Shown: positions 1,916-7,429 of the stretch, piece by piece
Layout of the letters: each line of letters starts with the position of its first letter
Position numbering within the stretch: position 1 is the stretch's first letter
Virus record (IMG/VR): IMGVR_UViG_2529292836_000015
DNA length: 21,605 bases
Reading direction: 5' to 3' (one strand)
DNA from: a virus
Lineage: Duplodnaviria; Heunggongvirae; Uroviricota; Caudoviricetes
The notes under the pieces: model-generated
Seen by the model: only the letters and a program-made list of their open reading frames with translations
Database searches by the model: none
Told to the model about the DNA's origin: nothing
Program-made: the position numbers and the translations under genes

Positions 1916-2198
1916 TTTGAGAAAAGCAGCGCGTGGTCGGGAATGCCAGGTAAGAATCACTGGCGTATGTAATGGCAACCCTGAAACGTCTGTACTGGCA
2001 CATATCCGGCTGGCTGGATTGTGCGGCACCGGTATTAAACCGCCAGACCTTATTGCCACCATTGCCTGTTCTGCCTGTCACGACGAAATCGACCGCCGCA
2101 CGCATTTTGTCGATGCTGAGTACGCAAAAGAATGCGCGCTGGAAGGTATGGCGAGAACGCAGGTTACCTGGCTGAAAGAGGGGGTAATCAAGGCGTGA
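1908..2198 (+). CDS. ybcO: YbcO-type putative nuclease (DUF1364, Cys-rich)
   Basis: ATG at 1908 preceded by AAGGAGG. Translation [62 protein letters not shown]... matches recalled DLP12 YbcO. Overlaps the ninE stop by 8 nt. Confidence 0.8.
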
Positions 2199-2557
2199 AT
2201 ACTTACCACATCACACTACCCTGGCCTCCGAGCAATAACCGCTATTACCGCCATAATCGCGGGCGCACACACATCAGCGCAGAAGGGCAGGCATACCGCG
2301 ATAACGTCACCCGAATCATTAAAAACGCAATGCTGGATATCGGCCTGGCTATGCCAGTGAAAATCCGTATTGAGTGCCACATGCCGGATCGCCGTCGCCG
2401 TGACCTGGATAATCTGCAAAAGGCCGCTTTTGACGCACTCACCAAAGCAGGTTTCTGGCTGGATGATGCTCAGGTCGTTGATTACCGCGTTGTGAAGATG
2501 CCTGTTACCAAAGGTGGGAGGCTGGAACTGACCATCACCAAAATGGGGAATGAATGA
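2195..2557 (+). CDS. rusA: RusA Holliday-junction resolvase (120 aa)
   Basis: GTG start at 2195 overlaps the ybcO stop (GTGA). Translation [26 protein letters not shown]...[33 protein letters not shown]... is near-identical to recalled E. coli RusA. Confidence 0.9.
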
Positions 2558-2694
2558 TGTTTGAGTCTTATATGGCAGAGCGTCTTCGCCGCCGCTGGGT
2601 GCGCCTGCGCTTATATCGTTTTCCTGGTTCTGTTTTGACCGATTACCGGATACTGAAGAATTACGCCAAAACCCTGACAGGAGCAGGAGTATGA
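2554..2694 (+). CDS. ylcG: small protein YlcG-like (46 aa)
   Basis: ATG at 2554 overlaps the rusA stop (ATGA). Translation [46 protein letters not shown]. Conserved position after rusA. Below the track cutoff. Confidence 0.6.
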
Positions 2695-2779
2695 AGTCAG
2701 AGATAACAATCAACTAATACTATTTTGTTGATTTTTGCTTGTAATTGGCGTTCTGGTCTGATTTTTGTGGAGTAAGTTG

Positions 2780-3163
2780 ATGCGTGATATTCAGATGGTT
2801 CTTGAGCGTTGGGGAGCGTGGGCGGCTAATAATCATGAAGATGTGACCTGGTCGTCCATTGCCGCCGGTTTTAAGGGATTAATTACTTCAAAAGTAAAAT
2901 CTCGCCCGCAATGTTGTGACGATGACGCGATGATCATTTGCGGGTGCATGGCCCGTCTGAAAAAGAACAACAGCGATTTGCACGATTTATTAGTAGATTA
3001 TTATGTAGTCGGTATGACATTCATGTCACTGGCAGGGAAGCATTGCTGCTCTGATGGTTATATCGGGAAAAGGTTACAGAAGGCTGAGGGTATAATTGAA
3101 GGGATGTTAATGGCATTAGATATCCGGTTAGAGATGGATATCGTTGTTAATAACTCTAATTAA
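2780..3163 (+). CDS. quuD: late-gene antiterminator Q (QuuD-like, 127 aa)
   Basis: ATG at 2780 with GGAGTAAG upstream. Translation [26 protein letters not shown]...[16 protein letters not shown]... matches recalled DLP12 QuuD. Position is right before the porin and lysis genes. Confidence 0.85.
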
Positions 3164-3196
3164 TATGCCAGTTGTTTACTAAAAGTTATTAAAAAT

Positions 3197-3220
3197 GGGG
3201 CGTTGCAACGCCCCCAAAAA
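3197..3220 (-). terminator. intrinsic terminator read on the minus strand (porin / 3'-UTR transcript)
   Basis: Perfect 18-bp palindrome GGGGCGTTGCAACGCCCC (3197..3214). On the minus strand it is followed by ATTTTTAAT. Confidence 0.45.
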
Positions 3221-3352
3221 TAAAGGGTAATATATAACAGAAGGTTTATATAGTTAGAAGCAAGGTTGTGCTCCTAAAGGAAGTGGCTTGAGGGAGCCAC
3301 TTATATGTTGGGGAGGCAAAGCCTCCCGCAACATATCTTTTTCGTAATCAGA
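3221..3352 (-). ncRNA. candidate structured 3'-UTR RNA of the porin gene (IpeX-like sRNA locus)
   Basis: Between the porin stop (3353) and the minus-strand terminator there are two stable hairpins: AGTGGCT-TGAGGG-AGCCACT (3282..3301) and ATATGTTG-GGGAGGC-AAA-GCCTCCC-GCAACATAT (3303..3336). From memory, the DLP12 sRNA IpeX maps to the nmpC 3' region. Confidence 0.3.
3303..3342 (+). terminator. intrinsic terminator-like hairpin on the + strand (candidate tR'-type site downstream of Q)
   Basis: GC-rich stem GGGAGGC/GCCTCCC with extended flanking pairing, followed on the + strand by ATATCTTTTTCG. Confidence 0.4.
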
Positions 3353-4435
3353 TTAGAACTGATACACCAGACCTACAGCGACGATGTCGTCGGTATCAAT
3401 ACCAGCTGTTTTGGTAAACTTACTATCGTCAATTAAGTTGATTTTGTAATCAACAAAAGTGGACATGTTTTTATTAAAGTAGTAAGTAGCACCGACATCG
3501 ACATACTTGACTAAGTCTCGGTCACCATGAACACCAAGGTCTTTACCTTTTGACTGAAGGTAAGCAACAGATGGTCGCAGACCGAAGTCAAACTGATATT
3601 GTGCTACTGCTTCAAAGTTTTGTGCTTTGTTTGCAATATGGTTATTACCAAAAACGGTCATATTCTGAGTTTCAGAATATGTGGTAGCCAGATAGATATT
3701 GTTCGCATCATATTTCAGGCCTGCAGCCCATACTTCCGCATTTTTGCCGGAGGCATTGAATTTGCTCTTACCATAGGCGACCTGACCGTCAGTGCGATCT
3801 GATTTAGCATAGGTTGCACCCACGCCGAATCCTTCATACTCATAAGTAGTGGAGAAACCGAAACCATCACCATTGGCTTCAGTTACGTCAGTGCGGTCAT
3901 TTTTACCCTGATACTGAGCAGCAAAGTTCAGGCCATCGACCAGACCAAAGAAGTCGTTGTTACGATAGGTTGCAACACCAGTGGTGCGACCAGTCATGAA
4001 CACATCTGTTTGGGTCCAGGTATCGCCACCGAATTCTGGCAGAACGTCAGTCCACGCACCGATGTCGTATGCTACACCGTAGTTACGGCCGTAATCGATT
4101 GAGCCGTAGTCACCGAATTTCAGGCCTGCAAATGCAAGACGGGTTTTGTCTTTGGAGGAACCTTGAGATTCAGCGCGGTTGCCTTTGAATTCATATTCCC
4201 ACTGACCGAAACCAGTCAGTTGATCGTTGATTTGGGTTTCACCTTTGAAGCCAAGACGGGCATAAGTAGTATCACCATCATCTGCATCATTAGAGGAGAA
4301 GTAGTGCTTAGCATTAACTTTCCCGTACAGATCCAGCTTGTTACTGTCTTTATTATAAATTTCAGCTGCCTGAGCAGACATCGCCATCAGTACTGATGCA
4401 GCTACAGCAGAAATTGCCACTGTTAATTTTTTCAT
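3353..4435 (-). CDS. nmpC: phage-encoded general porin, NmpC/Lc/OmpD type, intact (360 aa)
   Basis: Signal peptide [23 protein letters not shown], beta-barrel porin sequence ending in the typical ...VGLVYQF. Matches the recalled NmpC/OmpD family. Located between Q and the holin, as in DLP12 and PA-2. Confidence 0.9.
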
Positions 4436-4863
4436 CGTGAGCCCTTTTTTTTGAACTATTATTAAAAAATGATGTCACTGCGCGATAAATATTCATCTAA
4501 TCAATGTGATTATTTCAAGATGTAAGTTTTGGTTTCTCGTTTGATTTGTGAAGTAGATCTCTATTTTTATCTGAACTTTTTTCTATCGAATCCTATTCAT
4601 GGCTCTTGGCTGAATAAAAATAAATCTATTAGCCAATTTATATTAACGGCTATTATTTATAAGTGCTCTATAATTTGAAGGTTCAATTTAAACCAGCTAA
4701 AAATAACACTGGAAATTATTTGTTGGTTATTTGTTGAGATTTGCTTATGTATTTGTAGTGGTGTTTTCAATACTCGGTAGCATTCTCGCAAATATCATTT
4801 AGTGGTTTACGTACGTAAAAAATTGGTTATGCTGTTAAGAGTGGTTACTTCGTCACACAGCTT

Positions 4864-4896
4864 AAACCCGCCGTCGAGCGGGTTTTTCCATTTTTT
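4864..4896 (+). terminator. intrinsic terminator on the + strand about 130 nt upstream of the holin gene
   Basis: Stem AAACCCGC / GCGGGTTT with loop CGTCGA, followed by TTTTTCCATTTTTT. Confidence 0.5.
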
Positions 4897-5024
4897 GAGT
4901 CTCGATATTAGCTGATAACCCAATACCTGAGTTATTCACTGACTCCGAGTCTGTTACGTTTCTGCTTTTTTGCGATACGTTGTATTCCCTCAATTTACAC
5001 CCGCTTTGTCTGCGAGGTGGGGTT

Positions 5025-5240
5025 ATGAAATCCATGGATAAGTTAACAACGGGTGTCGCCTATGGCACCTCAGCAGGTAGTGCCGGGTACTGGTTTTTAC
5101 AGCTGCTAGATAAAGTCACGCCCTCACAGTGGGCGGCAATTGGAGTGCTGGGTAGCCTGGTATTTGGCCTGCTGACGTACCTGACAAACCTTTATTTCAA
5201 GATTAAAGAAGACAAGCGTAAGGCTGCACGGGGAGAGTAA
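5025..5240 (+). CDS. essD: class II pinholin, S21-like, with dual-start motif (71 / 68 aa)
   Basis: ATG at 5025 with GAGGTGG SD and a second in-frame ATG at 5034 (M-K-S-M). Gly/Ala/Ser-rich TMD1 ([16 protein letters not shown]), TMD2 ([18 protein letters not shown]), charged C-terminus. Near-identical to recalled EssD / phage 21 S21. Confidence 0.85.
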
Positions 5241-5244
5241 TTCA

Positions 5245-5589
5245 ATGACTCAAAACTATGAACTGATTGTGAAAGGGATCCGCAATTTTGAGAATAAAGT
5301 TACGGTAACTTTAGCGTTACGGGACAAAAAACGCTTTGACGGTGAAATTTTTGACCTAGACATCTCGCTGGACCGTGTTGAAGGTGCCGCGCTGGAGTTT
5401 TATGAGGCAGCAGCCAGAAGGAGCATCAGACAGGTCTTCCTGGATGTTGCTGCCGGGTTATGTGAAGGGGATGAGCTGTCGCCGGAAAAGCGCCCCATAA
5501 TTTTAGAGGCGCAGAATGTGTGGATAACCTACAAAGGAAAGCTACCGGGAAGAATTACTGGTTCTCTGAAGACTCCGCCGAAATGGTAA
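5245..5589 (+). CDS. hypothetical protein between holin and endolysin; possibly DUF1327/YdfR-like
   Basis: 114-codon ORF starting 5 nt after the holin stop. Soluble, acidic. Its slot matches that of ydfR between essQ and rrrQ in the Qin prophage; the sequence resemblance is my recollection only. Confidence 0.5.
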   Translation: MTQNYELIVKGIRNFENKVTVTLALRDKKRFDGEIFDLDISLDRVEGAALEFYEAAARRSIRQVFLDVAAGLCEGDELSPEKRPIILEAQNVWITYKGKLPGRITGSLKTPPKW

Positions 5590-5833
5590 TTTCACCAGCA
5601 TATTTTTCTTCCAGTAATACCGCCAGCCACTTGAAAGAATTTTGTTGTTGCTGGGACCATTTGGGGTTGAGTGATTCAAGCTGGAGCGATGCCAGTGTTG
5701 GTTGCATTTGTTCCTTGGGAATTGAGAATGCCAGATATGAAAATGCGACAGTAAGGGCATTTACATCATCCCGAAGCCTGGAAATGCAGTCGAGCAACTC
5801 CTGTAGAGAAATGGTGCTATTGTCCATAAACAA
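5555..5833 (-). CDS. hypothetical protein, convergent to and overlapping the 3' end of the preceding ORF
   Basis: 90-92 codon minus-strand ORF. Second ATG (complement of 5825..5827) is preceded by AGAGAGGA at 7 nt spacing. Helical-looking composition. No family recognised. The competing + strand ORF 5520..5852 lacks an SD and looks less protein-like. Confidence 0.4.
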   Translation of the reverse strand: MFMDNSTISLQELLDCISRLRDDVNALTVAFSYLAFSIPKEQMQPTLASLQLESLNPKWSQQQQNSFKWLAVLLEEKYAGEITISAESSENQ

Positions 5834-5932
5834 TCCTCTCTATTGTATTTAACTATTCCTTGCCTGATTCAACAGGCCGGGACAGATAAACATATCCAGG
5901 GTTCAGAAACCGATAAATCCTGATAAATATCC

Positions 5933-6466
5933 ATGAACGCAAAAATCAGATACGGCCTGTCGGCTGCCGTTCTGGCACTGATTGCCGTCGGTGCGCCTGC
6001 GCCTGATATTCTCGACCAGTTTCTGGATGAAAAAGAAGGTAACCACACAACGGCATACCGCGATGGTTCCGGCATCTGGACCATCTGTCGGGGTGCCACG
6101 GTGGTGGATGGAAAACCCGTTTTTCCCGGTATGAAACTGTCGAAGGAAAAATGCGACCAGGTTAACGCCATTGAACGGGATAAGGCGCTGGCATGGGTGG
6201 AGCGCAATATTAAAGTGCCACTGACCGAACCACAGAAAGCGGGTATCGCGTCATTTTGTCCCTATAACATTGGCCCCGGTAAGTGTTTCCCGTCGACGTT
6301 TTATAAGCGGCTGAATGCCGGTGATCGTAAAGGTGCATGCGAGGCGATTCGCTGGTGGATAAAAGATGGTGGGCGCGATTGCCGCATACGTTCAAATAAC
6401 TGCTATGGACAGGTTATTCGTCGTGACCAGGAAAGCGCATTAGCCTGTTGGGGGATAGAGCAGTGA
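5933..6466 (+). CDS. SAR endolysin (T4-lysozyme-like muramidase with N-terminal signal-anchor-release domain)
   Basis: N-terminal weakly hydrophobic Gly/Ala-rich segment [18 protein letters not shown], then catalytic E-x8-D-x5-T ([16 protein letters not shown]). Adjacent to the pinholin and Rz. Confidence 0.85.
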
Positions 6467-6924
6467 GCAGAGTCGCCGCGATTATTTATGCTTTGGTTAT
6501 CTGCATCATCGTCTGCCTGTCGTGGGCGGTCAATCATTACCGTGATAACGCCATCGCCTACAAAGAACAGCGTGATAAAAAAGTCAGTGAGCTGAAGCAG
6601 TCGATCGCCACCATCGCTGACATGCAGCAGCGTCAGCGTGATGTTGCTGCACTCGATGCAAAGTACTCGAGAGAATTAGCCAATGCGAAAGCTGAAAATG
6701 AAACTCTGCGCGCTGATGTTGCCGCTGGTCGTCGTCGGTTGCACATCAAAGCAGTCTGTCAGTCAGTGCGTGAAGCCACCACCGCCTCCGGCGTGGATAA
6801 TGCAACCAGCCCCCGACTGGCAGACACCGCTGAACGGGATTATTTCACCCTCAGAGAGAGGCTGATCACTATGCAAAAACAACTGGAAGGAACCCAGAAG
6901 TATATTAATGAGCAGTGCAGATAG
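6463..6924 (+). CDS. rzpD: Rz i-spanin (inner-membrane spanin subunit)
   Basis: GTG start overlaps the endolysin stop (GTGA). N-terminal [20 protein letters not shown] followed by coiled-coil. Matches recalled RzpD. Confidence 0.85.
6683..6865 (+). CDS. rzoD: Rz1 o-spanin lipoprotein, embedded in the +1 frame of Rz
   Basis: [20 protein letters not shown] lipobox, poly-Pro (PPPPP). Lies entirely inside Rz in another frame. Matches recalled RzoD. Confidence 0.8.
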
Positions 6925-6955
6925 AGCTGCCCATATCGATGGGCAACTCATGCAA

Positions 6956-7249
6956 TTATTGTGAGCAATACACACGCGCTTCCAGTGGAGTATAAATGCC
7001 TAAAGTAATAAAACCGAGAAATCCATTTACGAATGTTTGCTGGGTTTCTGTTTTAACAACATTTTCTGCGCCGCCACAAATTTTGGCTGCATCAACAGTT
7101 TTCTCCTGTCCAATTCCCGAAACGAAGAAATGATGGGTGATGGTTTCCTTTGGTGTTACTGCTGTCGGTTTGTTTCCAACAGTAAACGTCTGTTGAGCAC
7201 ATCCTGTAATAAGCATTGCCAGAGCGGCAGAAAACAACATTTTTTTCAT
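6956..7249 (-). CDS. bor: Bor lipoprotein (serum-resistance/Iss family, 97 aa)
   Basis: ATG at complement of 7247..7249 with AGGA SD. Translation MKKMLFSAALAMLITG-CAQQTFTV...GIYTPLEARVYCSQ matches recalled Bor/BorD. Confidence 0.9.
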   Translation of the reverse strand: MKKMLFSAALAMLITGCAQQTFTVGNKPTAVTPKETITHHFFVSGIGQEKTVDAAKICGGAENVVKTETQQTFVNGFLGFITLGIYTPLEARVYCSQ

Positions 7250-7429
7250 CTTATTATCCTGCATTGTTAAAAACGGCAGAATCCTATGTGACAACAATTA
7301 AACGATAGTTAAATGGATTGATGAAAATTAAAACTATATAGGTGGATGCTCAGCCTATCGGAGGTAGTCAGGATTTGAATGTCAGTCTGTTGTCGGCATT
7401 CTGGCAATGCAATTTGGATAAAGCGGGGA

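Follow-up and report, generated by a model that had tools for sequence, protein, structure and literature searches.

A conserved backward gene between ydfR and the endolysin gene in the lysis cassette of Escherichia coli prophages

Why should the genes for the class II pinholin (S) and the signal-arrest-release (SAR) endolysin (R), which abut in phage 21, lie 692 bp apart (5241-5932) with two other genes between them in a prophage of Escherichia coli? The question is raised by IMG/VR record IMGVR_UViG_2529292836_000015, a 21,605-nt stretch of caudoviricete DNA (hereafter ‘the window’, always at its full length) that is the late region of a DLP12/Qin-like lambdoid E. coli prophage. One of the two intervening genes is ydfR, on the plus strand; the other, here called X, is on the minus strand. 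X is a genuine, conserved gene under selection, and the ydfR-R junction at which it sits is a variable slot for small backward genes. Our preferred reading, to which we give a probability of roughly 0.6, is that X is a moron occupying this slot, expressed by the prophage, silenced by head-on late transcription, and standing outside the pinholin/SAR-endolysin lysis pathway.

The gap is a real departure from the minimal cassette, since S21 and R21 abut in phage 21 itself (the baseline from which a preliminary description of this DNA had started) and S and R together occupy only 738 bp in many Shiga toxin (Stx) phages. The coordinates that this description gave for both open reading frames (ORFs), 5245-5589 and 5833/5827-5555, and its separation of ~690 bp all hold. 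The features on which the argument turns are the following:

5827-5555, minus strand: gene X, 90 aa, a phrog_2411 member, RefSeq ‘hypothetical protein’ WP_000370550.1 (profile match, selection tests, AlphaFold)
5245-5589, plus strand: YdfR/DUF1327 gene, 114-aa variant (Pfam DUF1327, 4.1e-42; phrog_406 over residues 1-114 of 114)
5585-5872, no strand: ~290-bp segment present or absent relative to S-YdfR114-R cassettes without X (alignment with O157 FRIK2069 and AR_0014)
5025-5240, plus strand: class II (phage-21-type) pinholin/antiholin gene, essD-like, dual start MKSMDK (Pfam Phage_holin_2_1, 2e-35; essD in near-identical genomes)
5933-6466, plus strand: SAR endolysin gene, rrrD/rrrQ-like lysozyme, ATG at 5933 (Pfam Phage_lysozyme, 1.4e-24)

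Gene X and its protein family

The minus-strand frame can begin at a TTG at 5833 (92 aa) or at an ATG at 5827 (90 aa), and the ATG is the start taken by the Prokaryotic Genome Annotation Pipeline and by all homologues. The product matches phrog_2411 at 1.7e-59 (residues 3-92 against 1-90 of 90) over its full length, and 64 homologous clusters, 68-97% identical to it, are known from Escherichia and Shigella. X and ydfR overlap at their 3′ ends by 35 nt (5555-5589), as the preliminary description had reported, and its view of the minus-strand ORF as a gene with its own Shine-Dalgarno sequence is borne out by the profile match, by purifying selection, and by the AGAGAGGA upstream of the start. 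That description had also held that the minus-strand ORF would be a chance ORF if the plus-strand ORF proved to be an ordinary full-length DUF1327 protein and the minus-strand ORF had no conserved homologues, transcript, or ribosome footprint; the plus-strand ORF is indeed such a protein, but the minus-strand ORF does have conserved homologues.

Selection was assessed on X alleles from 90 loci, together with a divergent iha-linked copy extracted separately, using pairwise Nei-Gojobori ratios of nonsynonymous to synonymous substitution (dN/dS) over the 78 X codons outside the ydfR overlap. Pairs with a dS of at least 0.2 gave ratios of 0.14-0.33 (pooled, 0.25), and variable sites at codon positions 1, 2, and 3 numbered 16, 9, and 35. 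The X frame stays open in all ten lineages, and down to ~75% DNA identity (60% protein identity). Antisense to it runs a 110-aa shadow ORF on the plus strand (5520-5852), in which an ATG at 5583 overlaps with the stop codon of ydfR. As this ORF has a dN/dS of 0.20, dN/dS alone failed as a test of the coding strand (0.20 versus 0.25); the two frames have wobble positions in common, which accounts for the similarly low ratio in both. The tie was broken in three ways: by stop codons in the plus frame (one to three in five of the ten lineages), by the low variability of codon position 2 in the minus frame, and by remote homologues, which are found for the minus-frame protein only.

The protein is acidic (isoelectric point 4.3) and lacks a hydrophobic segment, its maximum Kyte-Doolittle hydropathy over 19 residues being 0.88. 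AlphaFold places helices at residues 8-35, 38-52, and 59-77, followed by a disordered tail, with a predicted local distance difference test score of ~81 from shallow and deep alignments alike; X is thereby predicted to be a small, acidic, soluble three-helix protein. The last ten X codons, those antisense to ydfR, encode the disordered, non-conserved tail.

X belongs to a small, unnamed, and uncharacterised family of Enterobacterales. A profile search of 1.84 billion representative proteins returned 20 clusters at E up to 0.001, and a second profile search returned 125 proteins; a scan of genome contigs with the single X protein returned only E. ruysiae. Nearly all named sources are Enterobacterales (Escherichia, Shigella, Citrobacter, many Serratia species, Chania, Gibbsiella, Chimaeribacter, Sodalis, and Acerihabitans), and two records bear Pseudomonas names. 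Every member is annotated as ‘hypothetical’ and none has a Pfam domain. The family has the conserved core ...ELL..I..L....N.L.VAFSYLAFS......L..L..ES.N, of which remote homologues at 30-40% identity keep AFSYLAFS...FES.N; Y31, L32, and E51 are invariant in 50 members. Literature searches on ydfR together with holin, on the X RefSeq accessions, and on ybl58 found nothing, and DUF1327 turned up in one unrelated paper only.

In E. coli lysis cassettes X is always backward. It also occurs in phiSTEC1575-Stx2k, where the genes downstream of an S21-YdfR-X unit are another holin pair and an M15 peptidase gene, and in a relic next to iha that is seen in one clonal lineage of 60 genomes (PKF4, SMS-3-5, and 58 others; L008 1093-2045). 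There X is intact, at 60% amino acid identity, and near the insertion sequence (IS) fragments nothing else of the cassette survives but the hairpin of the ydfR 3′ region and ~30 nt from the start of R, ydfR and R having otherwise decayed. Remote homologues are found in backward orientation between the tail genes M and L. In single cases they stand divergent from a terminase module, backward and immediately ahead of holin and lysozyme genes in a prophage of Citrobacter freundii, and beside an AIDA autotransporter gene. Others stand alone on chromosomes, in Sodalis, in one further metagenomic chromosomal context, and in Serratia-like genomes with the order pyrC-dinI-X-bssS-solA, where X forms its own transcription unit in that it sits behind the strong terminator of dinI. 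With dinI as the prompt, we looked by eye for a LexA box upstream of X and saw none. The distribution of X homologues disfavours a dedicated lysis function and favours a self-contained accessory gene.

The ydfR-R junction as a variable slot

The plus-strand ORF, which the preliminary description had guessed from its position to be DUF1327/YdfR-like, matches both DUF1327 and, over its full length, phrog_406; against PF07041 it scores 142.8 bits (cutoff 25) over residues 1-112. It begins after a 4-nt gap behind the pinholin stop codon and lies between the class II holin and lysozyme genes, as in the Qin arrangement. It is an ordinary late-strand YdfR gene of the 114-aa type, and its product would be a cytoplasmic protein. 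Residues 1-69 are ~84% identical to Qin YdfR, and the C-terminal 45 residues are unrelated to Qin's:

5451-5589, plus strand: variant C-terminal segment of the 114-aa YdfR, with the tail ...KGKLPGRITGSLKTPPKW (break in Qin homology at ~5450)

Aligned with Qin essQ-ydfR-rrrQ, the window is homologous over S and as far as about codon 69 of ydfR, loses homology from 5451 to ~5922, and regains it 10 nt before the start of R. In Qin YdfR, residues 1-72 bind the catalytic half of RNase E, and the protein co-purifies with RNA, according to a 2026 paper (PMC13232886). The N-domain reported to bind RNase E is the part conserved, at the level of sequence, in the YdfR of the window.

A closer comparison is provided by O157 FRIK2069 and AR_0014, which have the same YdfR (114/116 aa) and no X: relative to them, the window has an extra segment from 5585 to ~5872. 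Its left junction falls within ydfR codon 113, many genomes match the window from 5451 and stop at 5580/5584, and its guanine-plus-cytosine (GC) content is 42%, against 47-53% in the flanks. The suggestion that the minus-strand gene was inserted into the 3′ end of a ydfR-like gene thus looks right, given otherwise identical cassettes without 5585-5872 and a junction in codon 113, and the earlier idea of a moron also fits a low-GC, backward segment that is present or absent between otherwise adjacent genes.

The X form is found in 1130 of 5426 complete E. coli genomes (~21%), and 1036 of the 5426 match the 1491-bp S-to-R segment with a coverage of at least 80%. Near-identical DNA (99.9% over 4980-6470) occurs in enterotoxigenic E. 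coli (ETEC) and other strains, and RefSeq labels the genes in near-identical genomes as quuD, a backward porin (OmpC), essD, ‘YdfR family protein’, a minus-strand ‘hypothetical protein’, lysozyme, and ‘lysis protein’. The S-YdfR-X-R arrangement is common in E. coli, and existing annotations include it, with X as ‘hypothetical’. Phage Chlobot, deposited as a complete genome, has it at 99.9% identity, so X appears compatible with lytic growth. Strains of the BL21(DE3) type have S-YdfR-X-R, 98% identical, between ydaF and trkG within the remnant of Rac (L109, BL21 Star(DE3), 2078-3977). The empty form also occurs in phage BP-4795 and in Stx1a phages.

Two other fillings are known. The type of phage 2H10 (L110 521-1286; 294 of the 5426 genomes) combines a YdfR extended to 183 aa with an unannotated backward ORF of 86-88 aa (phrog_2572), and FDAARGOS_1262 (L009 1295-1845) and LF82 carry a backward 79-aa ORF (phrog_21218; 102 of the 5426). 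Profile comparisons found no homology among the three occupants; a relationship of the X family to the 79-aa and 86-aa ORFs was considered and, at an hhalign probability below 1%, the families were taken as unrelated. Strains thus differ in which small backward gene, if any, they carry at the ydfR-R junction, which is a variable slot.

Expression of X and the readings of its role

The interval between S and R would, on the reading that we prefer, hold two separate things: an ordinary YdfR gene on the late transcript, and the moron X. The moron brings its own ribosome-binding site and is framed by candidate signals for transcription, a promoter at the insert edge and a terminator hairpin in ydfR. 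The signals concerned are these:

5841-5834, minus strand: Shine-Dalgarno sequence AGAGAGGA, 6 nt upstream of the X ATG (read from sequence)
5872-5842, minus strand: candidate X promoter, TTGAAT (5872-5867) at the insert edge, 19-nt spacer, TACAAT (5847-5842) (read by eye)
5512-5486, minus strand: terminator-like hairpin GCGCCUC-N9-GGGGCGC, then UUUU, ~45 nt past the X stop codon and inside the ydfR coding sequence (fold)

While the late operon is off, X would be made from the resident prophage and would act in the cytoplasm by binding a partner of host or phage origin; once the prophage is induced, Q-modified late transcription would run head-on through X and shut it off. X would then be no component of the pinholin/SAR-endolysin pathway. 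Expression in the lysogen is probable. As general background, prophage accessory loci are often expressed in lysogeny according to one published account (PMC7067206). A defence or regulatory role is possible.

Across lineages the Shine-Dalgarno sequence reads GAGGA in the aligned lysis-cassette variants and a shifted GAGGAG in the iha relic, and only AAGATGA in the AIDA-linked copy. The −10-like element appears as TACAAT, GACAAT, TATAAT (iha relic), and TAAATT (AIDA-linked copy). TTGAAT-19-TACAAT is a better promoter candidate than the TTGAAT-15-TAAATA proposed in the preliminary description, which was rejected for the poor quality of both its spacing and its −10 element; the promoter scan found nothing there. 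Every slot variant keeps the hairpin, one with diverged flanks among them, and so does the iha relic; one of its pairs is G.U in the window and A-U in the relic, a change that preserves pairing only on minus-strand RNA. As a terminator it is a weak candidate.

Several observations weigh against our reading. A consensus sigma-70 scan upstream of X (spacers of 16-18 nt) found no site, and the TTGAAT/TACAAT pair chosen by eye, with its spacer of 19 nt, would give a 5′ leader of only ~8 nt. The hairpin is followed by four U only, in a region that folds no better than shuffled sequences (z = −0.76). Functional clues are wanting: X has no match in Pfam, NCBIfam, or PADLOC, and structure searches with its model returned generic helical matches only. 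A few alleles are broken (three nonsense alleles and some frameshifted 94-aa forms), though these are a minority and are expected in decaying prophages. X lies next to lysis genes in both E. coli and Citrobacter, which gives a lysis-related role a slim chance. Finally, a convergent late-strand ORF is present in every phage context, four of these ORFs having a common tail, and X may not act alone. Among the alleles, some strains also carry IS3-family insertions between X and R or in the 5′ end of X (L094 1979-3148; L095 1897-3110).

The objection from the convergent ORF leads to the alternative that survives best, a tentative one with the odds well against it: X and the C-terminus of the late-strand ORF would form a two-gene convergent module, in which X is made in the lysogen and the late-made partner tail, together with head-on transcription, neutralises it at induction. 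Such a module might serve defence or exclusion, with self-immunity built in, or be a pair resembling a toxin and antitoxin. Six phage contexts were read, and in each X is convergent with a small late-strand ORF, the two overlapping by 7-35 nt; four of these partners, RITGSLKTPPKW (the YdfR of the window), KITGSLRAPIKL (Citrobacter), RLTGDILIPLES, and QIFGDLKKPPSY, have like C-termini:

Window 5451-5589; L112 4239-4430; L105 5248-5436; L096 5261-5476; all late strand: tail-sharing partner ORFs (sequence comparison)

The tails ITGSLKTPPKW, ITGSLRAPIKL, LTGDILIPLES, and IFGDLKKPPSY follow the pattern (I/L)(T/F)G(S/D)(L/I)..P... and then a stop codon. This motif, which was defined post hoc, matches nothing else among 4295 ORFs, a specificity that favours the module. 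Homology with Qin ends at about ydfR codon 69, as if a foreign C-terminus had arrived with X, and the shared tails suggest that the C-terminus of the 114-aa YdfR may have come in with X as a convergent pair. The similarity between tails is weak, however (29% over 41 aa, with pairwise E-values of 0.006-0.04 from a very small database), cassettes that have the 114-aa YdfR tail but no X are common, and X occurs without a partner on chromosomes and in the iha relic. A PHROGs search of the partner ORFs gave no informative family, and PADLOC, in a scan of X and YdfR only, gave no match for either at E up to 1.

A more far-reaching form of the same idea, which we find doubtful, makes the ydfR-R junction a dedicated slot that swaps small backward genes and makes X with its partner tail a two-gene switch between lysogeny and lysis. 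If that were true, X would do its work in the lysogen, perhaps keeping out incoming phage or modulating RNase E via the YdfR domain fused to the partner tail, and induction would turn X off through head-on late transcription and the late-made partner.

It is improbable that X is instead a lysis regulator that tunes pinholin triggering or the release or expression of the SAR endolysin, either as a protein or by antisense across the S-ydfR-R message. Such a role would suit a gene that lies inside the lysis cassette, that is found just upstream of the holin-lysozyme pair in Citrobacter, that travels with the S21-YdfR unit in phiSTEC1575-Stx2k, and whose RNA would run antisense to the late message immediately before R. 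Yet X is oriented opposite to S and R and is not co-transcribed with them; it lacks a membrane segment, and its model consists of soluble helices throughout; and selection acts on the X protein, not on RNA alone. Cassettes without X are widespread, sequenced phages among them, and phage 21 achieves lysis with S directly adjoining R. The lysis-timing role put forward in the preliminary description finds a further obstacle in the homologues located in tail operons, by terminase genes, in the iha island, and, in Serratia-like genomes, alone on the chromosome with dinI and bssS as neighbours. That X is part of the lysis machinery or a lysis-timing factor is unlikely.

Scarcely credible, and already contradicted by the data, is the notion that the minus-strand ORF is a chance or shadow frame and that the real feature is the plus-strand ORF 5520-5852 or a non-coding spacer: that 110-aa ORF covers the same DNA, has its ATG at 5583 over the ydfR stop, and shows a low ratio of nonsynonymous to synonymous polymorphism (0.20) through the common wobble positions, but its frame is interrupted in half of the lineages and the minus frame in none, position 2 of the minus frame varies least (9 sites versus 16), and both the remote homologues and the confident helical model belong to the minus-frame protein.

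Setting and comparison with known systems

Downstream of R, whose translation as read has a Gly/Ala-rich N-terminal segment and an E-8-D-5-T motif, the cassette continues with the spanin genes:

6463-6924, plus strand: Rz-like i-spanin (ORF; ‘lysis protein’ or rzpD in matching genomes)
6683-6865, plus strand: Rz1-like ORF embedded in the Rz-like i-spanin gene (ORF list)

Other backward genes adjoin such cassettes. In the window, a gene for an OmpC/NmpC-like porin (3353-4435, minus strand) lies between the Q antiterminator gene and the pinholin gene and looks like a further moron in the path of the late transcript; a terminator-like hairpin with a T-run (4864-4885, plus strand) stands between porin gene and S, ~140 nt upstream of the pinholin start. 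Directly after Rz/Rz1 follows a backward gene for a Bor/Iss-like lipoprotein (6956-7297, minus strand), with iss at the same place in L007, L009, and L092 and a bor-like gene there in phage 21. The anti-adaptor gene iraM, one more small backward regulator gene, is found just upstream of the pinholin gene in the Stx2k phage (L004 4069-4392) and in AR_0014 (L007 1-318). An Rfam search of 4400-7400 found no meaningful RNA family.

The lysis cassette is usually read as a tight unit, and about one-fifth of complete E. coli genomes carry a backward, selected small gene inside it. Should X have a lysogen phenotype (e.g. phage exclusion, stress, or regulation of RNA turnover), it would be one more widespread prophage accessory function, and the junction would be a new place to look for such genes, with BL21(DE3) and ETEC among the carriers. 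Should it have none, X would merely be one more hypothetical moron.

Among known systems, Qin essQ-ydfR-rrrQ of K-12 resembles the window in its pinholin, in the YdfR N-domain (~84% over residues 1-69), in its SAR lysozyme, and in gene order. It differs in that its YdfR has 103 aa and another C-terminus and abuts rrrQ, with no minus-strand gene, and in having ~110 bp where the window has 472 bp (5451-5922). The S21-R21-Rz/Rz1-bor region of phage 21 likewise has a class II dual-start pinholin, a SAR endolysin, spanins with an embedded Rz1, and a backward bor-like gene downstream; its S and R meet in a stop/start junction, whereas the window has 692 bp with two genes at this point.

Temperate phages have variable hot spots for accessory and defence genes, e.g. 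those of P2 and P4. The ydfR-R slot differs from these in holding single small ORFs and no recognisable defence system (PADLOC gave no match for X, the one occupant scanned), and is like them in being a fixed junction filled by any of three unrelated backward ORF families (79-90 aa) or by nothing.

The moron concept of Hendrix and Juhala has its lambdoid examples in bor and lom, the products of which are envelope proteins with known lysogen phenotypes. Unlike these, X is predicted to be a cytoplasmic three-helix protein, and its promoter and terminator are candidates only. Like them, and like the backward iraM and ompC/nmpC-like genes, X is an extra unit of lower GC content between normally adjacent genes, present in some cassettes and absent from others, and placed, as such units often are, against the late operon.

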